Origin: Parvibaculaceae bacterium
Lineage (GTDB): Bacteria > Pseudomonadota > Alphaproteobacteria > RS24 > CBDDDD01
Assembly (NCBI GenBank): GCA_965226465.1
Contig: OZ245362.1
Location: 411,566 to 475,565 of the forward strand
Reading direction: 5' to 3'
DNA: 64,000 nt
Part shown: in pieces, positions 1-30,820 of the stretch
Position numbering within the stretch: the stretch's first letter is position 1
Layout: each line of letters starts with the position of its first letter
Translations under genes and position numbers: made by a program
The notes under the pieces: generated by a model
The model's input: the letters and a program-made list of their open reading frames with translations, nothing else
What the model was told of the DNA's origin: nothing
The model's database searches: none

Positions 1-1
1 T

Positions 2-3829: not shown

Positions 3830-3915
3830 CACCCGAATTGTTACGTTTTTGTTAATCTTTTTAATAATTTCTATAAAAAGTAATTTATATCAATGGGTTA
3901 AAAAGCAAGTTTCAT

Positions 3916-3944
3916 TTGACATTAAACGGTTTTGTTTCTAGGCT
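3916..3944 (+). promoter_or_regulatory. Sigma70-type promoter for AT2
   Basis: TTGACA (3916-3921), 17-nt spacer, TAGGCT (3939-3944). Nearly the same element precedes AT6. Confidence 0.7.
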
Positions 3945-8985: not shown

Positions 8986-9073
8986 CCTCTAAATCCTTAG
9001 GGCTTGATTAACCTTTTTAAAAAGATTAATAAAAATCCTTTATTATCATTACGCTAAGACGAAAGAAAAAATC

Positions 9074-9102
9074 TTGCTATCTATTAATAGTGCAATTATT
9101 AT
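9074..9102 (+). promoter_or_regulatory. Sigma70-type promoter for AT3
   Basis: TTGCTA (9074-9079), 17 nt, TATTAT (9097-9102), at a position comparable to the AT2/AT6 promoters. Confidence 0.5.
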
Positions 9103-9192
9103 CTAGAACGATTCTGCTAAAAAGAAGGTTTTATATAATATAGCATTCTTATCAAGTGCTGTAGCATTGTTTTAAAGTTTGGGATAGAAGTC

Positions 9193-12100
9193 ATGCGCAA
9201 ACTATTAATGATTATCGGAATAGCCATCGGTTTTTTGCCAGCAGGGTTCGCCCATGCCCAAGGACTGCCTACCACCCAATCTGAGCTGAGCGATGAGGCT
9301 GATAGCGTTATATTTTCTCCTCTAGGAATAACGGAATGGACTGTGGGTGATGGGGAGGTTCTTGATTTTGGTGGGGGTGGGGACATGATAACATTGTCAG
9401 GTATTCAGGCTATCCTAACGATAGATGGAGGGCGCATAGATTTTGGTACAGGCAATGATAAGATAATCCTTCAGGGTGTTTATTCTTTCCTCACTCTTAA
9501 GAATGGGGGCATGATAAATTTCGGAACGGGCAATGATGAATTAACGATATCCGATACTGCCAATATTGTTGGAGATGAAGGGGGCGGCACAATTAATTTT
9601 GGTGCGGGTAATGATAAAATCTTAAATGACGGGGATTTCCAATCGGGTAGTGGAAGCTTGGTAGTAGATTTGGGTGATGGTGATGATGTTTTTATCAATA
9701 GGAATATCGTCAATAATATTTCCATAAAATTTGGGGCAGGTGATGATGTTTTTATCAATGAAGCAGAGGGTAGTGCTACGCTGGGTAGCACGCTTAGTTT
9801 TGGCGATGGCTATGACAGGCTTATTAATGAGGGTGTTATTATTTTTGAAAGCCCCTCAATCCAAAGCCAATTTGTGTTTGAACAGGGGGCTAGTGGTAGC
9901 TTTTCTCTGGTCACTGGTTTTGAAAAAGCCACTACTGCTCCCATTTTCTTTACCGATTTGGAAAGCTTATTGCTTGATGGTGTTGTCAATCTTGACTTTA
10001 CAGGAACAGCGCCCGCTGAAGTCCCCGCAGAATATAGAGTGATTGGCTTCCACCGAGAGGCGGCGGTTCATATTGCGAGCGGCTTTAGGCTCGTTATTTC
10101 TGAGACCAATCTCGGCGCTTTGGGAATTGCGAATGTGGATGTTATTCCCACCATTAGCTCAACGGGGCAGTTTATCACATTGCGTGAGGACCCGAGCATA
10201 GCACCGGCGCGCATTTATGATATAGCAGAAAAGGCAAGCCTTGATTGTGATACGGCGCTTGTCTGTAAGGGTAGCACTGAGAGTCTCAGTTCTTTCAGAA
10301 CTTACAGGCAAGGTGAAATGTTTAGCAGCGAAACGTTCACGCTTGATGCTAACGGGTTTGCGGTTGAGGGGGGTCATACTTTCTTTGCTTCTCCCGCCTC
10401 AACTTCGCCTATGATGCTCACCCTTTCAACGGCTGTGGATAGTAAGGTTCAGGTTCATGGTCTGATTTATGTCGGTGATGTAAGACCGCAGCACTCCCAC
10501 ATTGAGCAATTTTTTATTGCCTTCAGCAAGCTGGTTTTTGGTGAAAATAATAACCATGCCTTTGCCAATATTAGCGGTGGGGGCAATTTTGAGCTTACCA
10601 ATTATGGTGGCATTATCGGGTCTGGTGCTGTGCTTATTACTCTGACTGATTTGGCAAGCGCAAAGATTTATAATGAGGGATTTATTCAAGCCGATAAAGT
10701 AGCCATTGCATTTGATGATGCTACAGGGTCTGAAACCTTTGAGCTTACCAATAAGGGCAGTATTCGTGCCAGCGGGGAGGTTATTCATATAGATGGCGGG
10801 GTGGCGACCATAGATAATGAGGGAAGTATTTACAGCTCTATTCTTGCCGCCGCCGACCGCCATTCCAGCGGTGCTATCAATGCCGCTATTGCGATAGACA
10901 GCGCCGCTCTGGAAAGCGATGCGCTTGTTATTATTAACCGCAAAAATGGGAGGATTATTTATGATGTGGGGGCGACTTATAGCGGGGCAGGGGGAGCGGG
11001 GGCGGCGGTTTTTGTCAATAATCGTTCCGATGCCAATCTTTATAATGAGGGTTTTATTTTCGGCAGGAAGGGCAGAACCATTCCTTCAGCCTCGCTTACG
11101 GCTCATGGCATTATCTGGAAGGATAGCACCGGTATCCTTGCCAATAGAGGCGGGATTTATGGCAAGGATGAAACCATAAAAATTGAAGGTGCTTCCGATA
11201 TTACTCTTTATAACAAGGGAATTATTAAATCCGCCAATAAGGCGGCAATTGAGATAGGTGGGGGTGGTGATGTTACCCTTACCAATTATGGCAATGGCGA
11301 GATTAGCGGAAATAGTTATGGGATTAATGCCCTTGCTTATAGTGGCGTTTATATTACCAATCTGGGAGAGATACGGGCTGCTACCAAGGGGGGCGTGGCG
11401 CTCTCCTTTAGACAAAATGCCGCACCTGAAGGCACCAAAGGGGCTGCTCTGATTGACACTAAAACGTTCGTCTATAATTTGGGGGATATTATCGGTGCCA
11501 CAGGCATTTATCTTGCCGGTGGCGGTGTTATCCATAATCATGGCGCAAATAGCCTCATTTATGGTGCCGATAAGGCTATTCATATCACGCATGGAAGACC
11601 ACGCTATGACGGCGGGGCGCAACGAAACAAGATTACAATTTTTAACGCCGCAGGGGCGAAAATTAACAGTCCTGTCTATGGCATTTATGTTGATGCGGCG
11701 CAGAATACCGACTTTATCCTCAATAATAGGGGCGATGTTTCTGGAGATGGTATCTCAGGCTATGGGCTTTATGTTGATATTGATGAGACAAAATCTGGCG
11801 CTAGTTTTAATGGTGCCAAGCTGACCATTACTAATCATGTGAGGGGCGGCATTTATGGTAGGAGTGCGGGCGTGCGTATTGTCAATATTCTGGATAATGG
11901 CAAGGCTCAGACTGTTGATGAAAAAATTACCATTCAAAATGCAGGCGGCATATTGGGGAGGGATATCGGTATTTTAATTGATGAGCCGATTAGTTTTCTG
12001 GATATTACCAATGAGGCAAGCGGGGTCATTGTCGGCGAGAATATCGCTATTCAGATGCTGAGCGGAAGCCCGGGTGGTGCTAATTCGGCGAATTATTTAA

Positions 12101-14145
12101 TTACCAATAAGGGGCATCTTCTTTCCGATACTATAGCGTTGCACAATCCCGGGCAGGGGTATTTTCTCAATCAAGGCTTTACCCTCGGCGATATCATCTT
12201 GGCAGGCGATGGCAGTACCCTTACCAATAGACCGTATACCAATAATAATTTCAATACGGATTTATGCGGTATTGTGGGCGAGCGCAGTTATAGCTTTGTT
12301 AAGGAAGCAATAGGCAAAGTCGCCCCAGGTGTCATTGTCGGTAATATTTATTTCTATGATAAAGATGTAGGTGAAGCTAGCAGTCCCGATGCTTCGCAAC
12401 AGCTTTATAATTACGGAGTTATCTATGGCAATGTATATTTCGGTAAAGGGGATACTGATAGATATAGGCATTTCAGAAATGCGCGTGTAGAGGGAACGGT
12501 TTGGCTTGGTGACGGCGCTGATTTTTTGATAGTTGAAAGAGGCGGAACAATGTATCTTAATGCTACCCGTGCCCCCTTTATTGCGGGCGACAAGTTTATG
12601 TTTGATAGTAATGATAAAATTACCATTAACTATGGTGGCACTCTGTTCCTGAATATAAATGGTGCCGGAACAGTAATGAGAATTGATGACCTGCAAGTAG
12701 CCAGCAATGGGAAGCTCTATATCAGCAATCTTGCCTTACGGGATTTCATTATTGACGCCGAAAAGCCCTTACTGGACCTTGGGGCAGGAAGAATTGAGGC
12801 TTTTGGGGATGCTAGGATTGGCGTTGCTTTCAGATTTGACGAAGAGTTCATATTATGGGCACAGCATGGTGAGGTTGGAACCAAAATAGAATTGATTAGA
12901 TCAAGCCGTAATCACGTAGCTGCTCGTACTGTGTTTCTAAGACCTGTCATTATGAATATTGACTTTGAGTTTAGTGGCACAAAAATCTATGCAACCTATA
13001 ATGGGCTGGACTTCACCAATGCGGGTAGCCTTCCCGGTGCGCCTGAGGATGCCTCCCGCTTTGCTTTCTATCTGGAGCGTTTATTGCAAGCAGAAGAGTT
13101 GGTTGCCCTTCCTTCTGGTCAAAGCCTTCTCAGCTCCCTTATTCAGGTTACGGATTTGGATAGCTATATTGCTAGGCTGGAGGAGGCATTGGGGGCGGCG
13201 AATTATGATGCGCTTCTCAGTGATTTAAGCGAGATTAGCGGTGTCAGTGGTTTTGTGGATGATTTTACCTCTGCCAATTGTGCCGTGCGCGATAAAGCCT
13301 ATCAGAGCCTTGTGGTGCGTCATGAGGAAAGTGGTTGTAGCTGGACTTCCTTTACGGAGCAATCTCTCGGGGATAGAGATGAGCAGGCTATTACGAGCGG
13401 GAGGCAGGCGCCGCTTGGGGAGCATTGGGTCAGTATGGTAGCGGGGCAATATAAGAAAGTGGAGCTTGTTGATAGGGTGGAGGGGCATGCCCGTGATAGT
13501 GAGACTTATCTGCTTGGTGCAGGGCTTCGCTCGCGCGCACCCATCGCCAATGTCGCTGATTTATCTGTTAGCTTGACTATGGGGCGGGGGGAGCATCGTC
13601 GTAATAGGGAGTGGGCGAGTGTTCAGCAGGCTTCTGTGCCGGAGATGAACTTCCAGATGGTTCGTATTGGGGCAAGCCGTAGCTTTGCATTGCCGCTCAA
13701 AGGTAGCTGGAAAATTACTCCGTCTACGGACTATAATCTGGTGCGGGTTGATGTTAGTGATTTGCAGCATGAGGGTAGTGCAGGGGATAGGGTTTTTGCG
13801 GTAGATGATATGGAGCATAATCGTCAAAGTGTGCGTGTTGGGCTTGAGTTGCGTGGGGAGCATGAAAGTGAGAGAGGCTCCAGTATTACCGCTTTTGCCA
13901 GAATTGGTGTTGAGCATTATGTCAATGGTCGCTCGGCTGGATATACCATCCGCCTTGTCGGGGCAAGTCAGGGCTTCACCTATTATGGTCGTCCGATTGA
14001 TGAGAATGTGCTTACGACTTCCTTTGGGATTACCAAAGCGCGGGGTAAAGCGGTTAGCTTCCGTGCTTTCTATGAAGGGAAGCAGGGGATTGGTGGTATT
14101 TATGAGAATCATGAAGCTAAGCTGGAGGTTTTAAGGCGCTTTTAG
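9193..14145 (+). CDS. Autotransporter-like protein AT3 (1650 aa)
   Basis: Signal peptide ending AHA/Q, 7 FGxG(D/N)D repeats, DCDTALVCKG hinge, conserved beta domain ending VLRRF. Confidence 0.88.
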   Translation: MRKLLMIIGIAIGFLPAGFAHAQGLPTTQSELSDEADSVIFSPLGITEWTVGDGEVLDFGGGGDMITLSGIQAILTIDGGRIDFGTGNDKIILQGVYSFLTLKNGGMINFGTGNDELTISDTANIVGDEGGGTINFGAGNDKILNDGDFQSGSGSLVVDLGDGDDVFINRNIVNNISIKFGAGDDVFINEAEGSATLGSTLSFGDGYDRLINEGVIIFESPSIQSQFVFEQGASGSFSLVTGFEKATTAPIFFTDLESLLLDGVVNLDFTGTAPAEVPAEYRVIGFHREAAVHIASGFRLVISETNLGALGIANVDVIPTISSTGQFITLREDPSIAPARIYDIAEKASLDCDTALVCKGSTESLSSFRTYRQGEMFSSETFTLDANGFAVEGGHTFFASPASTSPMMLTLSTAVDSKVQVHGLIYVGDVRPQHSHIEQFFIAFSKLVFGENNNHAFANISGGGNFELTNYGGIIGSGAVLITLTDLASAKIYNEGFIQADKVAIAFDDATGSETFELTNKGSIRASGEVIHIDGGVATIDNEGSIYSSILAAADRHSSGAINAAIAIDSAALESDALVIINRKNGRIIYDVGATYSGAGGAGAAVFVNNRSDANLYNEGFIFGRKGRTIPSASLTAHGIIWKDSTGILANRGGIYGKDETIKIEGASDITLYNKGIIKSANKAAIEIGGGGDVTLTNYGNGEISGNSYGINALAYSGVYITNLGEIRAATKGGVALSFRQNAAPEGTKGAALIDTKTFVYNLGDIIGATGIYLAGGGVIHNHGANSLIYGADKAIHITHGRPRYDGGAQRNKITIFNAAGAKINSPVYGIYVDAAQNTDFILNNRGDVSGDGISGYGLYVDIDETKSGASFNGAKLTITNHVRGGIYGRSAGVRIVNILDNGKAQTVDEKITIQNAGGILGRDIGILIDEPISFLDITNEASGVIVGENIAIQMLSGSPGGANSANYLITNKGHLLSDTIALHNPGQGYFLNQGFTLGDIILAGDGSTLTNRPYTNNNFNTDLCGIVGERSYSFVKEAIGKVAPGVIVGNIYFYDKDVGEASSPDASQQLYNYGVIYGNVYFGKGDTDRYRHFRNARVEGTVWLGDGADFLIVERGGTMYLNATRAPFIAGDKFMFDSNDKITINYGGTLFLNINGAGTVMRIDDLQVASNGKLYISNLALRDFIIDAEKPLLDLGAGRIEAFGDARIGVAFRFDEEFILWAQHGEVGTKIELIRSSRNHVAARTVFLRPVIMNIDFEFSGTKIYATYNGLDFTNAGSLPGAPEDASRFAFYLERLLQAEELVALPSGQSLLSSLIQVTDLDSYIARLEEALGAANYDALLSDLSEISGVSGFVDDFTSANCAVRDKAYQSLVVRHEESGCSWTSFTEQSLGDRDEQAITSGRQAPLGEHWVSMVAGQYKKVELVDRVEGHARDSETYLLGAGLRSRAPIANVADLSVSLTMGRGEHRRNREWASVQQASVPEMNFQMVRIGASRSFALPLKGSWKITPSTDYNLVRVDVSDLQHEGSAGDRVFAVDDMEHNRQSVRVGLELRGEHESERGSSITAFARIGVEHYVNGRSAGYTIRLVGASQGFTYYGRPIDENVLTTSFGITKARGKAVSFRAFYEGKQGIGGIYENHEAKLEVLRRF

Positions 14146-19680: not shown

Positions 19681-19704
19681 TCAATAAAGGGAGGGAATTA
19701 TATA

Positions 19705-22700
19705 ATGTATAGACTGGTCTTATTTGTGGCTTTATTTTCCGGTTTTGCGTTAAGTGATGCCTCCGCCCAGATTGTCAATGGGGATGATAGCGATAATATA
19801 TATACAAACTCAATAACCGCACCTGTCGCAGTAAGCAGAAGCTATGGCGGGGGGGATGATATGCTTACCAATTCAGGAACCGTTAATATATTCATTGCCG
19901 GTAGCCTTGACTTTGGCACAGGTGATGATGTTCTCGTCAATGAGGCGGGCGGTATAGTCGCCATATTTGGCTCCTTGCTTTTCGGGGCGGGGGATAATCG
20001 CATTACCAATTCAGGCATCCTCAATGTGTGGAATAATGCTCGTGTCAGTTTCGGGGCGGGGACAGACCGTATCATTAATGAAGCGGGCGCAAACCTCAAT
20101 ATAGGAAACGGAAATAATAGCAATAAAACAGGACATGCGGTGCTCAGTCTTGGGGCGGGTGATGATAGCCTTAGCAGTAGCGGGGCGGTCAGAATTGGCT
20201 TTGTGGATACATCAAATAGCATTGATGTTACCGCCAATCTTGATTTTGGAGAGGGCGATGACAGCTTTACAAGCTCGGATAGCGTTATTATCAATCCGGG
20301 AAGTCAGGTGAGCTTCGGTGCTGGCGATGACAGCCTTGTCAATACAGGCACCGGCACGCTCACGATGAGAAGCAATGCGGCAATCAGCTTCGGAGCAGGC
20401 AATGATGCCATTACCAATGCCGGCATTGTCAATATAGAGGGTACGAATAACTCCAATTTGGGGCGCATAAGCTTTGGCGAGGGCGATGATATATTTACCA
20501 ATGAAGCAGGCGCAGTGCTCAATGTGAAGGGTAGCGCCGAGCTGCTTCTTGGCGCTGGCAATGACAGGGTTATCAATGCAGGGGCGATTACCATAACAGG
20601 ATTTGGCGAGATAGATCTGGGCAGCGGTGATGATATATTTGAAAACCGACAAGGGGCAAGCCTCACCATAAGCCAACGATTTGAAAGGCTCGTCTTTGGA
20701 AAAGCAGGGGCGGATGGCTATGACAGGCTTATTAATGATGGTGCTATTATTTTTACAAAAGCCTCCACCCAAAGCCAATTTCTGGATGTGTTTGAACAGG
20801 GGGCTAGTGGTAGCCTTTCTCTGGTCACCGGCTTTGCAACAGCGACTACGGCAGGCATTCTTTTTGCCAATCTGGAAAGCTTATTGCTTGATGGTGTTAT
20901 CAATCTTGGTTTTACAGGAACAGCGCCCGCTACTATCCCCGCAGAATATAGAGTGATTGCCTTCCACCCAGAGGCGGCGGTTCATATTGCGAGCGGCTTT
21001 AGGCTCGTTATTTCTGAGACAAATCTCAGCACTTTGGGAATTGCGAATTTGGAAGTTATTCCCACCATTAGCCCAAGCAGGCAGTTTATCCTATTGCGCG
21101 AGGACCCAAGCATATTGCCCGCGCGCGTTTATGATGTGGCAACAAAGCCAAGTCTTGATTGCTCCACGGTGCTTGTCTGTAAGGGTAGCAATGCCCTTAG
21201 CAGTATTGATAGCGCAACGATTACGCTTAGCGCCAATGGGTTTGCGGTTGAGGGCGGGATCGTTTATTATGCCAAGCCAACTGGTTTTTTGCTTTCTTCG
21301 TCATTGCAGAACATAACTGCTAAAATTCAGATTGAGGGCGTGGTTTATGTCGGTGATGTAAGCCTGGATGATAATAATAAGCCGGCTCTTGGTAGCGGGA
21401 CTAATCATGGTTTTGCTGAGCTTAGTGGTGATGGCAGCAGTTTTGAAATTCTCAACTATGGCTCCATTATTGCTTCTGGTAATTTTGGTGCTATCTCATT
21501 TGCTGCTGTGGATAGTGTAAAAATATATAATGAGGGTTCTATTAGCACCGCCCATACGGCGATTAAGTTTTCAAATGAAAATACGGGGACTTTAGAGATT
21601 ACCAATAAGGGCAGTATTCGTGCTGGCGGTGAGGCTATTTATGTAGATGGCGGAGTGGTGACCATAGATAATGAGGGAAGTATTTATAGCTCTATTCTTA
21701 GCGACCGCTATACTCAGTCTCCCAGTGCTATTAATGCGACTATTTCTGTGGATAGCAATCTTCAACGCAGCGGGGCGCTGGTTATTATTAACCGCAAAAA
21801 TGGGGAGATTATTTATACGGTAGGCGATAGCTATAGCGGCACGGAGTATGCGGGGGCGGCGGTTTTTGTCAATGGGCGTAGCAATGCAAGGATTTATAAT
21901 GAGGGTCTTATTGTCGGCGGTGTGAAGCAGAGCGTTCCCTCCATCCTGCTTACTGCTCATGGCATTATCTGGAAGGAGAGCACCGGTAGTATCAGTAATA
22001 GAGGCGGGATTTACAGCAAGGATGAAACCATAAAAATTGAAGACCTTTCCGATATTACTCTTTATAACAAGGGAATTATTAACTCCGCCAATAAGGCGGC
22101 AATTGAGATAAGCTCGGCGGTAAGCAATAGGAAGAGTACTGTTACCATTACCAATTATGGCAATGGCGTGATTAGCGGAAATAGCTATGGGATTAATGCC
22201 CTTGCTTATAGCGGCATTTATATTACCAATCTGGGAGAGATACGGGCTGCTATTAATGGGGGCGTGGCGCTCTCCTTTAGACAAGCTGCCGGACCTGCTG
22301 GTATGAAAGGGGCGGCTCTTATTGACACTAAAACGTTGGTCTATAATTTGGGGGATATTATCGGTGCCACAGGCATTTATCTTGCCGGTGCCGGTGTCGT
22401 CTATAATAATGGCGCAGATAGCCTCATTTATGGTGCCGATAAAGCCGTTCATATCACACATGGAAGACCACGTTATGACAATGGGGTGCAACGAAGTAAG
22501 ATTACGATTTTTAACGCCGCAGGGGCGAAAATTAACAGTCCCGCCTATGGCATTTATGTTGATGCGGCGCAGAATACCGACTTCACCCTCAATAATAGGG
22601 GCGATGTTTCTGGAGATGGAGCCTCAGGCTATGGGCTTTATGTTGATATTGATGAGACAAAGTTTGGCGCTAGTTTTAAGGGTGCTAAGCTGACCATTAC

Positions 22701-24996
22701 TAATCATGCAAGGGGCGGCATTTATGGTAGGAGTGCGGGCATACGCATTGTCAATATTCTGGATAATGCCGCTGGCACGGTGCAGACTGTTGATGAAAAA
22801 ATTACCATTCAAAATGCGGGCGGCATATTGGGGAGGGATATCGGTATTTTAATTGATGAGCCGATTAGTTTTCTGGATATTACCAATGAGGCAAGCGGGG
22901 TCATTGTCGGCGAGAATATCGCTATTCAGGTGCTGAGCGAAAACTCGGGCGGCTCCGATATGGCGAATTATTTGATTACCAATAAGGGGCATATTCTTTC
23001 CGATACTATGGCGTTGCACAATCCTGGGCAGGGGCATTTGCAAAATACAGGCTTTATCCTTGGCGATATTGTCATTGTAAAAGCAGGCAGTGTGGTCAAT
23101 GAGGCTAGTGCTGACAATATTCTCAAAAAGGATTTATTCGGCAGGATAGCAGGGCAGCTTTATTCTTATAAAACCGCTATTGATGTCGCTTCGGGCGTGA
23201 TTATCGGCAATATTTATTTCTATGATGTTAGCGGTGATGATAAGGGGACAGCCATTGCACATAAATTTGTCAATTCCGGCACCGTCTATGGCAATATTGA
23301 TTTGGCTAAGGGAGATGATATTTATGAGCATAGGGGCAATGGTAGCGTGGAGGGGATTATTACTCCGGGCGATGGTGCTGATACGATAAGCGTTGCAAGC
23401 GGCGTGATGGCGCTTAATCTTTTCAATAAGAGGAATGTGGATGGCGACAAGGTCATATTTGACAGCGCCGATAAAATTGAAGTTGCCGCCAATGCCGCAT
23501 TGATTATGAATATCGCCAAAGCGGGCGAGGTTGTTAGCACTATTGCTTCCATGAGGGGAGCGGCGGAATCCAGCGTTTATATTGGCAATATTTCTCTGGC
23601 GGAGATTTTCAACTTCACTAAGCCCATATTGGATCTGGGTAGTACGAATATTGATATTCAAGGCTCGCTTGGGGTGCAGTTCCGTCTTGATAGGGATAGT
23701 TTATTATTCTTGCCAGTGGCGCAACCGCAAAGGGTGGAGCTTCTTACGACGAGCGGAAGCTTTAGCATTGCCGATAGCATGAAGAAGCCGATTATTATGG
23801 ATATTAGCTTTGCATTGGATAGCACCAATAAGAAGATTTACATGACCTATAATGGGCTGGACTTTACCAATGCGGGTGAGCTTCCCAATGCGCCTGAGGG
23901 GGCGCACAAATTTGCTGAATATTTGCAACGCCTATTAGAGGCTGAGGAGATAGTCGGCTTGCCTGCGGGGTATAGCCTTCTTAGCTCTCTTATTACCATA
24001 GATACTCTGAGCGACTATATTGCCAAGCTGGAGGAGGCATTGGGGGTGGTGAATTATGATGCGCTCCTCAGCGATTTAAGCGAGATTAGCGGCGTCAGCG
24101 GTTTTGTGGATGATTTTACTTCTGCCAATTGTGCCGTGCGCGATAGAAGCCATCAAAGCCTTGTGGTGCGCCATGAGGAGAGCGGCTGTAGCTGGACTTC
24201 CTTTACGGAGCAGTCCATTGGCGGTAGAGATGAGCAGGCTATTACAAGCGGGAGACAAGCCCCGCTTGGTGAGCATTGGGTCAGCATGGTTGCGGGGCAA
24301 TATAAGAAAGTGGAGCTTGTGGATAGGGTGGAGGGTCATGCCCGTGATAGCGAGACTTATCTGCTTGGTGCAGGGCTTCGCTCGCGTGCGCCCATTGCCA
24401 ATGTCGCTGAGGTTTCTGTTAGCTTGACTATGGGGCGGGGGGAGCATCGGCGTAATAGGGAATGGGCGAGTGTGCAACAGGCTTCTATTCCTGAGATGAA
24501 CTTCCAAATGGTGCGTATTGGGGCAAGCCGTAGCTTTGCATTGCCGCTCAAGGGAAGCTGGAAGATTACTCCGTCTACGGACGTTAATCTGGTGCGGGTT
24601 GATATTAGCGATTTACAGCATGAGGGTAGCACAGGGGATAGGGTTTTTGCGGTAGATGATATGGAGCATAACCGCCAAAGTGTGCGAGCCGGTATTGAGC
24701 TTCGTGGGGAGCATGAAAGCGAGAGAGGTGCGAGTATTACGGCTTTTGCGAGAATTGGTGTTGAGCATTATGTCAATGGTCGCTCGGCGGGGTATAGCAT
24801 TCGCCTTGTGGGGGCAAGTCAGGGCTTTACCTATTATGGACGGGCGATTGATGAGAATGTGCTTACCACTTCCTTTGGCATTACCAGCAAGCGTGGCAGA
24901 GCAATCAGTATACGTGCCTTTTATGAAGGGAAGCAGGGGATTGGCGGTATTTATGAGAATCATGAAGCCAAGCTGGAACTGCTAAGACGCTTTTAG
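19705..24996 (+). CDS. Autotransporter-like protein AT5 (1763 aa)
   Basis: SD GGAGGG in a 24-nt spacer after AT4, signal peptide ending ASA/Q, ~12 repeats, DCSTVLVCKG hinge, beta domain ending LLRRF. Confidence 0.88.
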   Translation: MYRLVLFVALFSGFALSDASAQIVNGDDSDNIYTNSITAPVAVSRSYGGGDDMLTNSGTVNIFIAGSLDFGTGDDVLVNEAGGIVAIFGSLLFGAGDNRITNSGILNVWNNARVSFGAGTDRIINEAGANLNIGNGNNSNKTGHAVLSLGAGDDSLSSSGAVRIGFVDTSNSIDVTANLDFGEGDDSFTSSDSVIINPGSQVSFGAGDDSLVNTGTGTLTMRSNAAISFGAGNDAITNAGIVNIEGTNNSNLGRISFGEGDDIFTNEAGAVLNVKGSAELLLGAGNDRVINAGAITITGFGEIDLGSGDDIFENRQGASLTISQRFERLVFGKAGADGYDRLINDGAIIFTKASTQSQFLDVFEQGASGSLSLVTGFATATTAGILFANLESLLLDGVINLGFTGTAPATIPAEYRVIAFHPEAAVHIASGFRLVISETNLSTLGIANLEVIPTISPSRQFILLREDPSILPARVYDVATKPSLDCSTVLVCKGSNALSSIDSATITLSANGFAVEGGIVYYAKPTGFLLSSSLQNITAKIQIEGVVYVGDVSLDDNNKPALGSGTNHGFAELSGDGSSFEILNYGSIIASGNFGAISFAAVDSVKIYNEGSISTAHTAIKFSNENTGTLEITNKGSIRAGGEAIYVDGGVVTIDNEGSIYSSILSDRYTQSPSAINATISVDSNLQRSGALVIINRKNGEIIYTVGDSYSGTEYAGAAVFVNGRSNARIYNEGLIVGGVKQSVPSILLTAHGIIWKESTGSISNRGGIYSKDETIKIEDLSDITLYNKGIINSANKAAIEISSAVSNRKSTVTITNYGNGVISGNSYGINALAYSGIYITNLGEIRAAINGGVALSFRQAAGPAGMKGAALIDTKTLVYNLGDIIGATGIYLAGAGVVYNNGADSLIYGADKAVHITHGRPRYDNGVQRSKITIFNAAGAKINSPAYGIYVDAAQNTDFTLNNRGDVSGDGASGYGLYVDIDETKFGASFKGAKLTITNHARGGIYGRSAGIRIVNILDNAAGTVQTVDEKITIQNAGGILGRDIGILIDEPISFLDITNEASGVIVGENIAIQVLSENSGGSDMANYLITNKGHILSDTMALHNPGQGHLQNTGFILGDIVIVKAGSVVNEASADNILKKDLFGRIAGQLYSYKTAIDVASGVIIGNIYFYDVSGDDKGTAIAHKFVNSGTVYGNIDLAKGDDIYEHRGNGSVEGIITPGDGADTISVASGVMALNLFNKRNVDGDKVIFDSADKIEVAANAALIMNIAKAGEVVSTIASMRGAAESSVYIGNISLAEIFNFTKPILDLGSTNIDIQGSLGVQFRLDRDSLLFLPVAQPQRVELLTTSGSFSIADSMKKPIIMDISFALDSTNKKIYMTYNGLDFTNAGELPNAPEGAHKFAEYLQRLLEAEEIVGLPAGYSLLSSLITIDTLSDYIAKLEEALGVVNYDALLSDLSEISGVSGFVDDFTSANCAVRDRSHQSLVVRHEESGCSWTSFTEQSIGGRDEQAITSGRQAPLGEHWVSMVAGQYKKVELVDRVEGHARDSETYLLGAGLRSRAPIANVAEVSVSLTMGRGEHRRNREWASVQQASIPEMNFQMVRIGASRSFALPLKGSWKITPSTDVNLVRVDISDLQHEGSTGDRVFAVDDMEHNRQSVRAGIELRGEHESERGASITAFARIGVEHYVNGRSAGYSIRLVGASQGFTYYGRAIDENVLTTSFGITSKRGRAISIRAFYEGKQGIGGIYENHEAKLELLRRF

Positions 24997-25081
24997 CCCT
25001 CAAATTGGTAGGATTTTGTTAACCTTTTCAAAACCAATAAAAAAAGTCATTTATATCAATGGGTTAAAAATATGTTTTTAT

Positions 25082-25110
25082 TTGACATTAAGCGGCTTTG
25101 TTTATAGTCT
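25082..25110 (+). promoter_or_regulatory. Sigma70-type promoter for AT6
   Basis: TTGACA (25082-25087), 17 nt, TAGTCT (25105-25110); homologous to the AT2 promoter. Confidence 0.7.
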
Positions 25111-25153: not shown

Positions 25154-28100
25154 ATGTATAAATTAATAGCCATAGCAGGACTATTCGCAAGCCTTTTATT
25201 TACAACGGGCGAAGCACAGGCACAGACTTATGAGAGTTGTACTCCTGTTGATTTCCAGACCTATACTGATTTTGCTTCCGAGGTCTGTAGCACAGTGACT
25301 CCTAGTTTAAGCGGTACTGCTAATAGTATAAGTTCCAGTAATAGCATTAAGCTTACCAGCTCTCTTGATTTTCTTGGTGGCGATGACGTGATTGAGCTTA
25401 CCGCTAACTCAGATAGCTATCAATCACATATTAGCATAGGCGATGGTGTGATAGTTAGTTTTGGCGCCGGCAATGATAAGCTTGATGTGATTTATGCTAA
25501 AACCAATCTAGAGGTGAATGCAGGGGGGCTGATTGATTTTGGTGCGGATGATGATGAGTTGATCTTTAAGGGTGCTCTGGCAGATATATACGGTACAATA
25601 AACTTTGGCACCGGAAATGATGTGCTTGAAAACTTCCACATATTTACTGTTGAGACAACTGGTAGGGTAGACTTTGGGGCAGGGGATGACACATTTTATG
25701 TTTATCACCATTCTATTAAACCACTTGAAAGCTTTATTATAGAGGGTGTTGTAGACCTTGGTGCGGATAATGACCGACTTTATAATGAAGGTGCTATTGT
25801 TCTATCAGGAGCAGGAGCTGCTAAACTGCTATTTGGTGCAGGCAATGATGTTTTGCATAATGGCTTTGATGTTAATGGCAAGGGTGATGCCAATAGCGTT
25901 ACTGCTTTGATACATCTTGAACCCGGAGCTGTTGCAGACGCGCCACCTGTTATGGATTTTGGTGCCGGCGATGACATTATTAATAATGGTTTTCTTAGCT
26001 CTACCGTAAGTGCAGATGGTACAATAACGATTGGTGATACCGGACATGCTTTCCTCTTGCTTGGTGCAGGGAATGACATTATTAATAATGGGTTTTACCG
26101 TGCCGCCCAAGGTGCCGACCTTGAAGCTTTCGGCAAGGGTATTATTAACATACATGATGTGCTTGACCTTGGTGCTGGCGATGATGTGCTCAATAATGAA
26201 AAGGGCAGTGAGATTCATTTTAAATCGTTTTTTCACCTCACAGTTTCCCCTGCACCTAGTCTTCTTTTTGGAGCGGGTGATGATGTTCTCAATAATAGAG
26301 GCACAATCACATTTCAACAACACGGTTCTCTTATAGATTTTGGGACAGGTAATGACAGGCTTATCAATGCTGAAAGCGGTGTCATTTCTATTACAGAGTT
26401 TGGATTTGATGCCGCCAATAATATTATTCCTTATGATGCTGGAACATTTAGCATTATTAATGGTGTTGTTGAAAATGCGGGTGTAATTTCTCTGATTGTA
26501 GGCTCAACATTGGTTATGGATACATATATAGAGACAGGAACAGGGAATATTAAAATAAAGCCTGACTTTAGCGGTGCTGGTTTTGTTAATCTTGATATTA
26601 AGGAAACCCCCGCCCGTATTACGTTGGATATAGATATAGGCAGTAGCACAATAGCTGCTGGAACAACCAGCTTTACTCTGTTTGCTCTATCCAAATATGA
26701 GATTATGAAAAATGTTAGGCTCAATGCCGCGGGTGCCACTGCGTTAAGGCTTACCAATCCGCAAATTGTTTCGCTTATGGTGAAGCAGTCTGATAACACA
26801 TTCTCGCACCAGCTGGTTGCGCAGGAAAACCCTCTTGCTCTGCCTACAATTGGCTATGATATAGCGACAAAGGCAAGCCTTGACTGCTCCACTGCTCTTG
26901 TCTGTAAGGGTATTAATACTGCCATTAGCAGTACGGTTTTTGATAGCACAACGCTTACGCTTACTGCCGATGGATTTGCCGTTGATGGCGGGCATGCTTA
27001 TTTTGCTAAAACCGCCCCTTTGCTCACGCTTACAACGGCGGTAGATACTAAGGTTCAAATTCATGGGCTGGTTTATGTCGGTAATGTAAGTGCGACAGCA
27101 GTAACAACAAATGCGGGAGAGGCGAATGAAGCAACTACCTATCCTCTGACTTTAGGTGCTGAGACTACCTATGCCTTTGCTGAAATTAGCGGTGGGGGCA
27201 ATTTTGAGCTTACCAATTATGGTGCCATTATCGGCTCCGGTGATGCGCTTATTTCTCTGACTGATTTGGCAAGCGGAAAGATTTATAATGAGGGCAGTAT
27301 TAGTGCCGCTAAAGCCGCCATTAAAATTACTGACGCTACCGGTGCTGAAGTCTATCAGATTACCAATAAGGGCAGTATTGGCTCCGATGGCGAGGCTATT
27401 ATTGCAGAAGGCGGCGTGATTACCATAGATAATTCAGGCGGCATTGGAAGCTCCATTGAACTGGTGGCAAATGCCCAAGGTGGTGATGGTAAACATGCTA
27501 CTATTCATATAGGGGATAATGCCACGGCAAATGCTAATGCGGTTACCATTATTAACCGTAAAGGTGGCAGGATTGGATATAGAATAGGCTCTCTTGATGG
27601 TAGCACTCCTCCCGATAGCACTCCGATTTATGTAGCCAGTCTTTCCGCTTTGAAAATTTATAATGCAGGGGATATTATTATCTCCAAATCTTCAGATGCC
27701 GCCAGCAATACAGCAGGGTATGCTATTTTCTGGAATGGCAATACTGGTAGCATTTTCAATACTGGCAGAATTATCGGTATAGAATCCGCCATACATATTA
27801 CAGGGTCAACAGCAAGTGCTACATCTGATATTACTATCCATAATAATGGTCTTATCAAATCCAGTGAGGACACGATTAATATAGATAATGCGGCTCATAA
27901 GGTCAGCATTTTCAATTATGAGGATGGTACGATAAGCGGTGGTGGTGCAGGTGAGACTATTCGTGTGCAGAGTCATGCCGAGTTCTATCTTACCAATCAC
28001 GGGCTTATAACTGGTGGTGGAGCTTCAACAATACTCCTGAATACGAACAGAAATACCAGTAATGCGGTTGCTGCCCATAATAGCGTTATCTATAATACAG

Positions 28101-30820
28101 GCAGGATTTTAAGCTCAAAGGGTGAAAGAGGCAGAGCTATTCAGTGGAGAGGTTCAGGTTTCTTGTTTAATATTGGAACTGATGCTCTTATTTCAGGAGA
28201 TGCAGAGGCTATTTTTTTAGAGAGGGGGCGTTCCAGCAATGCCGACGACCGAGAAGTTTTCACGCTTATCAATAGTGGTAAAATTCTCTCCTCAGTAGGA
28301 TATGGTATTCGTGCGGCGGGAAACACCAATACAAGTATTCTTGTGGATAATGTCGGTGTGATTAGCGGTGCTACAAGCGGTATCTTTGTTAATATCACTA
28401 CCGCACAGCACAGCATTGTAAATGCTAAAGTGGATATTTTGAATAAAGCGGGGGGTGGCATTTATGGTGATGAGTCGGCTATTCATATCGTTTCTCTTGG
28501 AGCCGATGATACCAAAAATACTGTGGCTGAAAAATTGGTCATTACTAATGATGGCGATATATTCAGTAAGGATATTACTATTAATATAGCTGAGATTATT
28601 GGGGCGTTGGATATTACTAATGGTCCAAATGGTGCTATTGTGGCTAAGACGAATGAGCTTGACCGTGAGGCTTATGATGGAACCATTGCCATTAATATCA
28701 GCGATGCAGGCTCAGGGGGTGCGGTAGCAAATTATGCCATTACCAATATGGGGCGTATTCTTTCCAATAGCATTGCCTATCGTGCGCTCGGAATAGGGCA
28801 TTTGAACAATACTGGCTTTATCCTCGGCGATATCATCGTGGCGGGTGATGGCTCTACCCTTATCAATCGGGTTGATGCCGATAATGATTTCAAGAAGGAT
28901 TTATTCGGCAAAGTGGGCGACCGTAGCTATAGCTTCCTTAGAGACCCAAGCCAAGTCGCCTCTGGGGTGATTATCGGTAATATTTATTTCTATGATAGAA
29001 GTCTCATCACCGTGGTTGAGAACGCTGATGGTACCTTTACCACTACCGATACCAATACCGCTAAGGGGCAAACGCTTACCAATTCGGGAATTATCTATGG
29101 GAATATAGATTTTGGTAAAGGTAACGATACCTATAACCATGAAGGAAATGGACGCGTGGAGGGAACGGTTACGCTGGGTGCAGGAGAAGACACTTTGAAT
29201 GTTAATAGCGGAACAATGTATCTTAATGTTGCCCGTGACCGCCTTATCGCTGGAGACAAGTTTATATTTGATAGTTTTGATAAGATCATCGTTAATAATG
29301 GTGGCACTCTGGTCATGAATATAAATAGTGTTGGAACAGTATTTTCTATCACTACCGTGGACGTAAAAAGTGGTGGAAAGTTCTATCTCGGCAATCTTTC
29401 CATGAAGGATTTCATTATAAACACCGGTGATACGTACTTAATAGACTTTGATGGAGCAGCGCTTACCCTTCCTACGGGTGCTACGTTTGGTCTTAATTTC
29501 CGCTTTGACGACGATTTTATGCTTTGGGCACAGCTTGGAGATAATGCCCCCAAAATAAGATTGATTACCACAGCGGGTGGTTGGGACGTTGCTAGCCCCA
29601 CACTTGCAAGCCCTGTCATTATGGATATTGACTTTGAGGTGAATAATAACAATGAAGCACTCTTTGCAACCTATAAAGGGCTGGACTTCACCAATGCAGG
29701 TAGCCTGCCCGGTGCGCCTGCAGATGCCAGCAAGTTTGCTGATTATCTGCAACGTCTATTGCAAGCAGAAGAGTTGTTCAAGCTTCCTGCCGGTGAAAGC
29801 CTTATCAGCTCCCTCATTCAGGTTGATGATTTGGGCACCTATATTGCCAGGCTGGAAGAAGCATTGGGCACAGCGAATTATGACTCACTGCTCAGCGATT
29901 TAAGCGAGATTAGTGCCGTCAGCAGTTTTGTTGATGACTTCACCTCCGCCAATTGTGCCGTGCGTGATACAGCCTATCAAAGCCTTGTCGTCAGCCATGA
30001 GGAGAGCGGGTGCAGCTGGACTTCCTTTACGGAACGCTCCGTTGGTGGTAGAGATGAGCAAGCCATTACAAGCGGGAGGCAGTCGCCTCTTGGTGATAAC
30101 TGGGTCAGCATGGTTGCCGCTCAATATAAAAAAGTGGAACTTGTGGATAGCGTGGAAGGTCATGCCCGTGATAGCGAAACCTATCTCCTCGGTGCAGGGC
30201 TTCGCTCTCGTGCGCCGATTGCCAATGTTGCTGAGGTTTCTGTCAGCCTGACTATGGGACGTGGCGAGCACCGCCGCAACAGAGAATGGGCAAGTGTGCA
30301 ACAGGCTTCTATGCCTGAGATGAACTTCCAGATGGTGCGTATTGGCGCAAGCCGTAGCTTTGCATTGCCGCTCAAAGGTAGCTGGAAGATTACCCCTTCC
30401 ACAGACTATAACCTCGTGCGCGTTGATGTCAGCGATTTACAGCATGAGGCAGTAGCGGGTGATAGTATCTTTGCCATAGATGATATGGAGCATAACCGCC
30501 AAAGTGTGCGTGCCAGCCTTGAGTTGCGCGGTGAGCATGAAAGCCAAAGAGGCTCCACCATTGCCGCCTTTGCCAGAATTGGCGTTGAGCATTATATTAC
30601 TGGTCGCTCGGCTGGATATAGTATCCGCCTTGTCGGTGCCAGTGAGGGCTTCACCTATGCTGGGCGGGCGATTGATGAGAATGTGCTTACCACTTCCTTT
30701 GGTATTACCAGCAAGCGGGGCAAAACAGTTAGCTTCCGTGCCTTCTATGAAGGGAAGCAGGGCATTAACGGCATTTATGAAAACCATGAAGCCAAGATGG
30801 AACTGCTAAAACGCTTCTAA
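25154..30820 (+). CDS. Autotransporter-like protein AT6 (1888 aa)
   Basis: SD GGAGG, signal peptide almost identical to AT2, ~12 repeats, DCSTALVCKG hinge, beta domain ending LLKRF. Confidence 0.88.
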   Translation: MYKLIAIAGLFASLLFTTGEAQAQTYESCTPVDFQTYTDFASEVCSTVTPSLSGTANSISSSNSIKLTSSLDFLGGDDVIELTANSDSYQSHISIGDGVIVSFGAGNDKLDVIYAKTNLEVNAGGLIDFGADDDELIFKGALADIYGTINFGTGNDVLENFHIFTVETTGRVDFGAGDDTFYVYHHSIKPLESFIIEGVVDLGADNDRLYNEGAIVLSGAGAAKLLFGAGNDVLHNGFDVNGKGDANSVTALIHLEPGAVADAPPVMDFGAGDDIINNGFLSSTVSADGTITIGDTGHAFLLLGAGNDIINNGFYRAAQGADLEAFGKGIINIHDVLDLGAGDDVLNNEKGSEIHFKSFFHLTVSPAPSLLFGAGDDVLNNRGTITFQQHGSLIDFGTGNDRLINAESGVISITEFGFDAANNIIPYDAGTFSIINGVVENAGVISLIVGSTLVMDTYIETGTGNIKIKPDFSGAGFVNLDIKETPARITLDIDIGSSTIAAGTTSFTLFALSKYEIMKNVRLNAAGATALRLTNPQIVSLMVKQSDNTFSHQLVAQENPLALPTIGYDIATKASLDCSTALVCKGINTAISSTVFDSTTLTLTADGFAVDGGHAYFAKTAPLLTLTTAVDTKVQIHGLVYVGNVSATAVTTNAGEANEATTYPLTLGAETTYAFAEISGGGNFELTNYGAIIGSGDALISLTDLASGKIYNEGSISAAKAAIKITDATGAEVYQITNKGSIGSDGEAIIAEGGVITIDNSGGIGSSIELVANAQGGDGKHATIHIGDNATANANAVTIINRKGGRIGYRIGSLDGSTPPDSTPIYVASLSALKIYNAGDIIISKSSDAASNTAGYAIFWNGNTGSIFNTGRIIGIESAIHITGSTASATSDITIHNNGLIKSSEDTINIDNAAHKVSIFNYEDGTISGGGAGETIRVQSHAEFYLTNHGLITGGGASTILLNTNRNTSNAVAAHNSVIYNTGRILSSKGERGRAIQWRGSGFLFNIGTDALISGDAEAIFLERGRSSNADDREVFTLINSGKILSSVGYGIRAAGNTNTSILVDNVGVISGATSGIFVNITTAQHSIVNAKVDILNKAGGGIYGDESAIHIVSLGADDTKNTVAEKLVITNDGDIFSKDITINIAEIIGALDITNGPNGAIVAKTNELDREAYDGTIAINISDAGSGGAVANYAITNMGRILSNSIAYRALGIGHLNNTGFILGDIIVAGDGSTLINRVDADNDFKKDLFGKVGDRSYSFLRDPSQVASGVIIGNIYFYDRSLITVVENADGTFTTTDTNTAKGQTLTNSGIIYGNIDFGKGNDTYNHEGNGRVEGTVTLGAGEDTLNVNSGTMYLNVARDRLIAGDKFIFDSFDKIIVNNGGTLVMNINSVGTVFSITTVDVKSGGKFYLGNLSMKDFIINTGDTYLIDFDGAALTLPTGATFGLNFRFDDDFMLWAQLGDNAPKIRLITTAGGWDVASPTLASPVIMDIDFEVNNNNEALFATYKGLDFTNAGSLPGAPADASKFADYLQRLLQAEELFKLPAGESLISSLIQVDDLGTYIARLEEALGTANYDSLLSDLSEISAVSSFVDDFTSANCAVRDTAYQSLVVSHEESGCSWTSFTERSVGGRDEQAITSGRQSPLGDNWVSMVAAQYKKVELVDSVEGHARDSETYLLGAGLRSRAPIANVAEVSVSLTMGRGEHRRNREWASVQQASMPEMNFQMVRIGASRSFALPLKGSWKITPSTDYNLVRVDVSDLQHEAVAGDSIFAIDDMEHNRQSVRASLELRGEHESQRGSTIAAFARIGVEHYITGRSAGYSIRLVGASEGFTYAGRAIDENVLTTSFGITSKRGKTVSFRAFYEGKQGINGIYENHEAKMELLKRF

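Follow-up and report, generated by a model that had tools for sequence, protein, structure and literature searches.

Full-length, expressed outer-membrane paralogues that become mosaics through RecA-dependent gene conversion are found at Neisseria opa and at Helicobacter pylori babA/babB and sabA/sabB, where the loci are dispersed and repeat-driven phase variation accompanies exchange. Neisseria pilE/pilS, Anaplasma msp2, and Borrelia vlsE instead combine one expression site with silent, truncated donors. The Staphylococcus aureus lpl cluster is described as a set of tandem lipoprotein-like paralogues with one central conserved region as the exchange site, the conserved unit being the 3' part of an ORF, the spacer, and the 5' part of the next ORF (Tsuru and Kobayashi 2008, PMC2568036). 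Gene conversion among paralogues has also been proposed for the PmpG cluster of the Chlamydia Pmp proteins (bioRxiv 10.1101/506121). Here, we describe an array of six tandem autotransporter genes on the plus strand, AT1 to AT6, at positions 1-30820 of the window (the whole 64,000-nucleotide stretch of DNA that was analysed). Literature searches listed no publication on this array. The genes are as follows.

1..3829, plus strand: AT1; 5' end 1090 nt upstream of the window, full protein 1639 aa; PF03797
3982..8985, plus strand: AT2; 1667 aa; sibling of AT6 over its full length (78% nucleotide identity); PF03797 in a C-terminal scan
9193..14145, plus strand: AT3; 1650 aa; PF03797
14314..19680, plus strand: AT4; 1788 aa; PF03797 in a C-terminal scan
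19705..24996, plus strand: AT5, the gene under study; 1763 aa; PF03797 in a C-terminal scan
25154..30820, plus strand: AT6; 1888 aa; sibling of AT2; PF03797 in a C-terminal scan

All six genes are complete ORFs with a start codon, a putative signal peptide, and a barrel; the spacer between AT4 and AT5 is 24 nt. By eye, each protein opens with a short basic segment that is followed by a hydrophobic one and by a site resembling A-x-A (in AT5, ...LSDASAQ). Whole-protein Pfam scans found PF03797 in AT1 (E 7.7e-13) and AT3 (E 4.4e-13) and missed the barrels of AT2, AT4, AT5, and AT6, which were found when the last 330 aa were scanned alone (46.6-54.7 bits; cut-off, 26). On the basis of this barrel, AT1-AT6 are predicted to be classical (type Va) autotransporters. 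An AlphaFold2 model of AT5 aa 330-1460 had a mean pLDDT of 70.4, and within it residues 240-810 consisted of short stacked strands, with 10-residue blocks mostly at pLDDT 70-97 and dips at loops. The best Foldseek matches of the model were to a beta-helix domain and to the EspP, EspC, Pet, Ag43, Fap2, and pertactin passengers, all of them weak (E from 9e-4, TM 0.12-0.34), and the AT5 passenger is accordingly modeled as beta-helical (a solenoid). A PDB sequence search with alignment A1 gave no match, and NCBIfam gave nothing for AT4, AT5, or AT6. Each array protein would comprise a signal peptide, a head of FGxGxD repeats, a long beta-solenoid passenger, and the PF03797 barrel; in AT5, positions 19705..20703 encode the putative signal peptide followed by nine FGxGxD-type repeats. 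Read from its start, AT5 is divided as follows.

19705..20703, plus strand: block 0, without a close paralogue; 85-97% identical to P0006 here
20713..21126, plus strand: block 1, AT3-like (AT3 9805-10279); dS 0.15
21127..21954, plus strand: block 2, AT4-like (AT4 15699-16582), with AT3-like flanks on both sides; dS 0.19
21806..21972, plus strand: near-identical tract with AT4 (16412-16578); 167 nt, 3 mismatches
21973..23064, plus strand: block 3, AT3-like (AT3 ~11101-12194); dS 0.17
22783..22929, plus strand: near-identical tract with AT3 (11908-12054); 147 nt, 1 mismatch
23070..23400, plus strand: block 4a, AT1-like; dS 0.33
23401..23780, plus strand: block 4b, no close relative (nearest AT1, 57-65% nucleotide identity, dS 1.27)
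23781..24060, plus strand: block 4c, AT1-like; dS 0.21; holds 23907-24049, which matches AT1 2740-2882 (143 nt, 2 mismatches)
24061..24996, plus strand: linker and beta-barrel (PF03797), 80-93% nucleotide identity among all six genes

AT5 thus runs from a private head through AT3-type, AT4-type, AT3-type, AT1-type, private, and AT1-type sequence into a common barrel. A first-pass annotation of the sequence had read its passenger as an AT3/AT4/AT3/AT1 mosaic, and all four blocks were recovered where it had placed them. BLASTN of AT5 against the array aligned AT3 9805-12194 with 20713-23069 (79.8%), AT4 15699-16582 with 21123-21976 (85.1%), and AT1 1588-3829 with 22788-24996 (79.6%), and in the codon alignment sliding identity to AT3 was 73-91% over block 1 and 79-98% over block 3, that to AT4 was 76-97% over block 2, and that to AT1 was 83-97% over block 4. 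The eight peptide landmarks that it had quoted are all in the AT5 translation, and its tract 2741-2882 versus 23908-24049 has exactly the two mismatches in 142 nt that it had counted. Its AT1 block proved not to be uniform: the AT5-AT1 dS of 1.27 at 23400-23780 equals the block 3 background for this pair (1.26), so that block 4 splits into two AT1-like patches on either side of a stretch lacking a close relative. In the barrel region, short tracts of 97-99% identity occur, with the gene pair changing from tract to tract.

Phylogenetic and substitution analyses agreed with this division. In trees of successive blocks, the sister of AT5 was AT3 (100/99), AT4 (100/99), AT3 (100/100), and AT1 (98/98, 84/89, 100/99); the block trees conflicted at 98-100% support, and all 10 alternative sister constraints were rejected by AU tests (p 0.019 to 2.7e-79), p-values that are optimistic because the blocks were set from similarity before tree building. 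Maximum chi-square analysis placed breakpoints at 21126/21127, 21954-21973, and 23064-23070, with 0 of 2000 permutations as high at each. Within a block, dS to the nearest paralogue was 0.15-0.33, versus 0.69 to saturated for the others. A GENECONV-like test of the longest concordant runs gave a global p of 0/1000 for 4 of the 15 gene pairs, three of which include AT5 (with AT1, AT3, and AT4), and a global p of 0.014 for another two; the remaining nine were not globally significant. Supported tree conflict between segments, significant breakpoints, and over-long identity tracts are together the marks of a gene family shaped by conversion, and these data establish recombination among the tandem paralogues, with its breakpoint positions and relative ages. 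Segmental gene conversion or unequal recombination had been proposed at first pass; recombination is borne out, but a single unequal crossover is insufficient for an AT4-like block inside AT3-like sequence, which needs conversion or a double exchange. Junctions were not significantly located in conserved islands, 0.20-0.91 of random neighbourhoods being equally conserved. J2, J4, and the start of block 4c fall at the 94th-96th percentile of conservation in 30-nt windows, which random neighbourhoods match in 20-26% of cases, and conservation is unremarkable at J1, J3, and the end of block 4a; a link between junctions and islands was dropped.

Paralogues that are 80-98% identical are a classical cause of chimeric assembly, and uneven selective constraint might imitate a mosaic. 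Contigs of three studies nevertheless bridge AT5 junctions 1, 2, and 4 independently: X4/X5, possibly the source sample, spans all three, X1 spans the first two, and X2, in which 7 of 30 bins are without cover, spans junction 1. Junction 3 has no bridging piece among the contigs listed, but the protein encoded by a separate assembly continues across it with the blocks in the same order. Constraint alone cannot explain a signal that lies at synonymous sites and is accompanied by supported topological conflict. We therefore regard an artefact of either kind as barely credible. The contigs of four runs, a format that drops rare variants, showed no alternative AT5 chimera of the sort that the first-pass annotation had envisaged in the population. 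In the joints listed (21257>21341, 23005>23123, 23069>23200, and 23226>23845), the short side measures 21-33 nt, as fits cross-mapping of paralogues, and these joints were not taken as alternative chimeras. The runs holding array sequence are labelled sponge and cave metagenomes.

Comparison with orthologues, made at the protein level, shows that the patchwork is old. Six proteins were available: P0004, P0006, and P0007, from one 9867-bp contig, and P0008-P0010. P0004 is the AT4 orthologue (82% amino-acid identity). P0006, which comes from another assembly and is an incomplete orthologue of AT5 (85%), repeats the AT3/AT4/AT3 order: AT3-type residues occupy 55 of 72 sites in block 1, AT4-type residues 50 of 63 in block 2, and AT3-type residues again 71 of 85 in block 3. 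The AT5 architecture is thus older than the split from that assembly, its main junctions being conserved across assemblies at 85% protein identity, and the notion that the array had assembled "new" passengers does not hold for this order. At 21801-21960, AT5 is AT4-type at 11 of 11 sites, and P0006 is AT4-type at 4, AT3-type at 5, and neither at 2; on these 11 informative amino-acid sites in one partial protein, the third junction seems shifted in P0006, which suggests conversion after the split. The tree of 21481-21954 pairs AT4 with AT5 (87/98), joined by M4 and then by M5n; AU tests there rejected a clade of AT5 with P0006 (M5n; p 0.009) and one of AT4 with M4 (p 0.039). Paralogues closer than orthologues, as in concerted evolution, were found in 21481-21954 only; in blocks 0 and 3 the orthologues group together. 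Since AT5 shares the state of AT4 and the AT4 orthologue at 21801-21960 and not that of P0006, AT5 would be the recipient there, and the tract 21806..21972 probably records an AT4-to-AT5 conversion that postdates the split from the related assembly.

Related strains occur in at least two other studies (~91-99% identity), and exchange between strains is possible for any one block, such that the mosaic might have been imported by allelic replacement from the DNA of other strains and not from paralogues on the same chromosome. Every block nevertheless has its nearest known sequence within the array itself, in a paralogue 5-21 kb away; the near-identical tracts correspond to local paralogues; and at 21481-21954 the local paralogue is more similar than the orthologue from the other assembly. 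Together these points make import extremely doubtful.

Direction of transfer can be assigned only at ~21801-21960; blocks 1, 3, 4a, and 4c and the original block 2 event are left unpolarised. The description of AT5 as a mosaic of three neighbours is therefore correct as to the patchwork, whereas the recipient role that it implied is supported in that interval alone, and AT3 is equally mosaic: its head is AT1-like (9343-9822), its middle AT5-like (9763-10272 and 11083-12192), and its tail AT2-like (12253-12972). Elsewhere in the array, AT1 resembles AT5 in its tail (1850-2239 and 2570-2929) and AT3 in its head and upstream region, the AT2 tail is AT3-like at ~7132-7671, and pairing is confined to the units of upstream region plus head (AT1 with AT3, AT2 with AT6). 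Alternatively, AT5 or an AT5-like ancestor may have been the source from which AT3, AT4, and AT1 received segments, AT3 being a younger chimera put together from AT1-type (head), AT5-type (middle), and AT2-type (tail) pieces. The nearest relative of AT3 does change among three genes along its length, and block 2 corresponds to the sole segment of the AT4 passenger with a close paralogue (15754-16623). In the related assembly, moreover, the AT4 orthologue is preceded by a gene that does not resemble AT3 (P0010 and P0007 are 36% and 74.5% identical to AT3), and neither two word-index searches nor a representative search found an AT3 orthologue, although the fragmentary state of that assembly means that failure to find AT3 there does not show it to be absent. 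This polarity is countered by the recipient state of AT5 at 21801-21960 and by block 3, where AT5 groups with P0006 (82/86) and AT3 lies outside, meaning that AT3 and AT5 did not part later than the lineages did. We consider it a genuine possibility, if one we would not favor.

Our preferred reading, to which we assign a probability of about 0.85, is recurrent homologous recombination, mostly gene conversion, in a lineage-restricted tandem autotransporter family. The passenger family went undetected in 57 other genomes of the order (A2 search), an AT5 search of 40 relatives gave no match, and no DNA relatives were found in genome contigs (queried with AT5 and P0004) or metagenome contigs (alignment A1 and AT5). 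The genome that carries the array is the sole representative of its taxonomic family among the genomes examined, in a poorly known lineage. The passengers have repeatedly traded segments (~150-1100 nt) through general homologous recombination acting on the direct repeats, most exchanges being non-reciprocal conversions, with unequal crossover probably setting gene number; the short near-identical tracts and the shifted junction in P0006 would reflect conversion going on since the split. RecA, MutS, and MutL are encoded in the genome and RecG in the window, and we infer a RecA-dependent mechanism, as we do the direction of most transfers. The benefit would presumably be a diversified host-facing adhesin surface.

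Programmed, high-frequency cassette variation, with the six genes as mutual donors and new chimeras arising quickly within the population, could also be considered, given tracts 143-167 nt long that are almost identical (1-3 mismatches), the size of the array for a 1.39-Mb genome, and the different chimera carried by relatives (P0010, a private head with an AT1-like tail). The block dS of 0.15-0.33 indicates that most exchanges are old, and the main junctions are kept across assemblies at 85% protein identity; for the contigs of four runs, no alternative AT5 joint was listed beyond likely cross-mapping. There are six full-length genes and no silent or truncated family copies elsewhere in the genome, where BLASTN gave a single HSP outside the array, of 47 nt, and TBLASTN gave 12 weak ones, all of them in one giant repeat protein. 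A scan of the 27 ORFs outside the array with at least 150 aa (12 antisense or overlapping ORFs lay outside it) matched no family of recombinases, transposases, or reverse transcriptases, in line with the earlier remark that the window encodes no site-specific recombinase. Programmed variation is on this evidence very unlikely. A diversity-generating retroelement and site-specific inversion were rejected on the same scan of 27 ORFs. No tandem repeats were detected at positions 1-31000, and no SSR exceeded the filter; the only homopolymers above it are G7 at 19849 and 30836, the former being the sole poly-G run within the AT genes, with no length variant among the contigs listed. A self-contained combinatorial generator, with six expressed full-length adhesin genes as mutual donors and neither cassettes nor a dedicated recombinase, is improbable. 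Were it true, host-associated populations would keep making new passenger combinations, and the shifted junction 3 and the private head and AT1-type tail of P0010 would be snapshots of the process.

Under the reading of recurrent conversion, the recombination in the AT array is of an old, ordinary gene-family kind and requires no new mechanism. In a lineage of which little is known, the array offers a clean, well-resolved case of a tandem surface-protein family that has evolved reticulately; devoting ~2% of the genome to it suggests that the proteins matter for life with a host, and dated conversion layers could calibrate the rate at which such families are remodelled. As in opa, bab, and sab, full-length paralogues trade variable segments to give mosaic genes, but the AT genes lie in strict tandem, without any sign of switching by repeats. 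Segmental, non-reciprocal copying into chimeric surface proteins is likewise shared with pilE/pilS, msp2, and vlsE, from which the array differs in having six complete genes and no silent fragments in the genome. Compared with lpl, the AT array has at least six junctions per gene together with internal patches, and its junctions are not shown to be enriched in conserved islands; the two have in common tandem host-interaction surface paralogues whose variable regions are shuffled by homologous recombination, with incongruent phylogenies within one ORF (PMC2568036). The Pmp repeat (PF02415) and middle domain (PF07548) were not detected in any of the six AT proteins (Pfam, E <=0.01). Unlike the PmpG cluster, the array is without frameshifted or truncated copies, and like that cluster it presents clustered autotransporter paralogues in a reduced genome (bioRxiv 10.1101/506121).

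The six tandem autotransporter genes AT1 to AT6 have recombined with one another, and the passenger of AT5 is a mosaic of segments related to different neighbors. The array fills the first 31 kb of the window with open reading frames of 1639-1888 aa, and the remainder of the window carries housekeeping genes (que genes, enolase, pyruvate dehydrogenase complex, ispDF, metG, ntrYX-like, trkAH, hflX, and recG). The window occupies 411566-475565 of a 1,379,539-bp contig; the second contig of the genome is 11,485 bp.

Autotransporter genes of the array (window coordinates)
AT1: start 1090 nt before the window, end 3829, + strand
AT2: 3982-8985, + strand
AT3: 9193-14145, + strand
AT4: 14314-19680, + strand
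AT5: 19705-24996, + strand
AT6: 25154-30820, + strand

GC content across the array (1-30000) is 0.41-0.48 per 2-kb window against a genome mean of 0.48, and GC skew is strongly positive (0.09-0.34). The AT4-AT5 spacer is only 24 nt (19681-19704) and contains the purine-rich AAAGGGAGGG; the remaining spacers are 152-207 nt. AT4 and AT5 may form a single transcript. Approximately 3.7 kb past the window end lies a 7702-aa open frame (G000:C1:479294-500668, - strand) whose only likeness to the AT heads is the FGxGDD-type repeat motif (short stretches of 25-46% identity) and that, together with the array, would occupy >3% of the 1.39-Mb genome.

BLASTN and codon alignment reproduced the four-block AT3/AT4/AT3/AT1 composition of AT5 proposed in a first-pass annotation, and the peptides quoted there were found in the AT5 translation.

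AT5 blocks and nearest paralogues (nucleotide identity; dS)
Block 1: 20713-21126, AT3, 73-91%; 0.15
Block 2: 21127-21954, AT4, 76-97%; 0.19
Block 3: 21973-23064, AT3, 79-98%; 0.17
Block 4a: 23070-23400, AT1, 83-87%; 0.33
Block 4b: 23401-23780, AT1 (weak), 57-65%; 1.27
Block 4c: 23781-24060, AT1, 91-97%; 0.21

Downstream of 24061, identity among all six genes is 80-93%. For blocks 1, 2, 3, 4a, and 4c, dS to any nonnearest paralogue was at least 0.69, up to saturated. An artifact of constraint is disfavored because the mosaic signal stands in synonymous divergence. Block 4, originally read as a single AT1 match, is better described as two AT1-like patches (4a and 4c), since the dS of block 4b equals the AT1-AT5 background of block 3 (1.26); the reported 142-nt tract shared with AT1 does contain exactly two mismatches.

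Maximum chi-square analysis placed junctions at 21126/21127, 21954-21973, and 23064-23070, with the observed value reached in 0 of 2000 permutations at each. No single topology fits the gene: maximum likelihood trees joined AT5 with AT3 in blocks 1 (100/99) and 3 (100/100), with AT4 in block 2 (100/99), and with AT1 in blocks 4a, 4b, and 4c (98/98, 84/89, and 100/99, respectively). All 10 alternative sister constraints tried were rejected by the AU test (p 0.019 to 2.7e-79), although these p-values are optimistic because the blocks were picked beforehand from similarity. A GENECONV-like permutation of polymorphic sites gave a global p of 0/1000 for AT5-AT1, AT5-AT3, AT5-AT4, and AT2-AT6 and 0.014 for two further pairs, with 9 of 15 pairs not globally significant. 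Junctions 2, 3, and 4 (numbered along AT5) coincide with motifs that all six genes conserve, but our test did not show this to go beyond chance.

Misassembly is countered by metagenome contigs that span three of the four junctions as in the window. Contigs from runs X4/X5, possibly the source sample of the window, are identical to it across junctions 1 (19500-20999), 2 (20991-21539), and 4 (22900-23332); those of X1, an independent sponge metagenome, cross junctions 1 (20635-20904, 5 differences) and 2 (21079-21612, 7 differences), and a cave metagenome (X2) crosses junction 1 (20269-20894) at ~91% identity. Junction 3 was not spanned by any contig among those listed. The AT5 mosaic is not an artifact.

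Only six family proteins were found outside this genome, three of them on one 9867-bp contig labeled Parvibaculales MAG. P0004, the AT4 orthologue, is 82% identical to AT4 in amino acids over its full length, and P0006, a partial AT5 orthologue (947 aa), is 85% identical to AT5 aa 1-954. Gene order and the size of the contig suggest that AT4 and AT5 are adjacent there also. We scored sites at which AT4 equals P0004 but differs from AT3.

States at scored sites
Block 1, AT3-type: AT5 53/72; P0006 55/72
Block 2 (21127-21800), AT4-type: AT5 51/64; P0006 50/63
21801-21960: AT5 11/11 AT4-type; P0006 4 AT4-type, 5 AT3-type, 2 neither
Block 3, AT3-type: AT5 68/85; P0006 71/85

P0006 carries the same AT3/AT4/AT3 states, so the mosaic is older than the split of the two organisms and is conserved. 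The 21801-21960 sites suggest a third junction further upstream in P0006. In the tree for 21481-21954, ((AT4,AT5) 87/98, P0004) 69/73, P0006 falls outside, and an (AT5, P0006) clade was rejected (AU, p 0.009), which suggests that AT4 sequence converted AT5 later, in the lineage of the window; a 167-nt tract with 3 mismatches agrees with this. By contrast, orthologues group together in block 3 and in block 0, the putative signal peptide and head (19705-20703). The annotation's proposal is partly supported: recombination among the paralogues is shown, but the AT5 mosaic is an old product, and a direction of transfer is indicated for about 21801-21960 alone.

What precedes the AT4 orthologue is not an AT3-like gene but another chimera: P0007, its 495-aa C terminus on the 9867-bp contig, overlaps P0010 by 42 identical residues, and in P0010 a head that resembles none of the six genes is joined to a tail that is AT1-like from about the position of AT5 nt 22600 (per-window identity 57-95%). 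The other two proteins are fragments, P0008 AT1-like (81%) and P0009 AT2/AT6-like (65-68%). An AT3 orthologue was absent from every search made, and array content may differ between lineages. The passenger family is restricted in distribution, with no matches to AT5 in 40 relatives or to the family query A2 in 57 genomes of the order, and only 7 proteins at E ≤1e-30 among 1.84 billion representatives.

The whole family is reticulate, and describing AT5 as a mosaic of three neighbors is one projection of a network. In AT3 the head resembles AT1 (9343-9822), parts of the middle resemble AT5, and the tail resembles AT2 (12253-12972); this gene could be described in the same way. AT2 and AT6 are siblings along their full length (78%), AT4 has a close paralogue in block 2 only, and barrel tracts of 95-240 nt at 96-99% identity join changing gene pairs. 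Upstream regions are similar between AT1 (-1268..-1091) and AT3 (9014-9188; 89% over 178 nt) and between AT2 (3875-3937) and AT6 (25041-25103; 86% over 63 nt); as these are duplicated with the gene heads, promoter-plus-head units were copied together.

Because the AT4-type patch sits inside AT3-type sequence, a single unequal crossover is excluded; such a patch requires nonreciprocal conversion or a double exchange. The genome encodes RecA, MutS, and MutL, and the window RecG; outside the array, no truncated or silent copies were found in the genome (one 47-nt BLASTN HSP; 12 weak TBLASTN HSPs, all within one giant protein), and the array itself showed no tandem repeats or repeat switches. These features lead us to infer that the exchange ran through general homologous recombination, acting on direct repeats separated by 5-21 kb. 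As the annotation had stated, no site-specific recombinase is evident: recombinase, transposase, and reverse transcriptase families were absent from 27 nonarray window ORFs of at least 150 aa (12 antisense or overlapping ORFs left out). The helicase gene recG (61736-63817), whose product has wedge, DEAD, Helicase_C, and RecG_dom3_C domains, is located 31 kb beyond the array; it serves recombination in general, and no specific link to these genes is apparent.

All six proteins have a PF03797 autotransporter barrel. Whole-protein scans matched it in only two; in AT2, AT4, AT5, and AT6 it emerged (46.6-54.7 bits) when the last 330 aa were scanned alone, and routine scans can overlook a barrel that follows a long repetitive passenger. 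The region AT5 aa 330-1460 was modeled with AlphaFold2 (mean pLDDT 70.4); most of model residues 240-810 are predicted with confidence, as short stacked strands. Foldseek matches of this model, every one weak, were to autotransporter passengers and a beta-helix domain. FGxGxD-type repeats number 2-11 per head. A G7 tract 145 nt into AT5 (19849-19855, encoding GGG) is conserved in P0006, with no length variant among those listed from four runs. Passenger dN/dS is 0.31-0.78 in blocks with a close paralogue and that of the barrel 0.09-0.16, as would suit an exposed surface that evolves fast, and we infer a possible adhesin role towards a host.

Neisseria opa and the H. pylori bab/sab genes are close to this array. 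The lack of truncated or silent copies rules out a cassette system, and, with no PF02415 or PF07548 match, the array does not belong to the Pmp family. Of the described systems, the S. aureus lpl tandem cluster (PMC2568036) and the chlamydial PmpG clusters (10.1101/506121) come closest.
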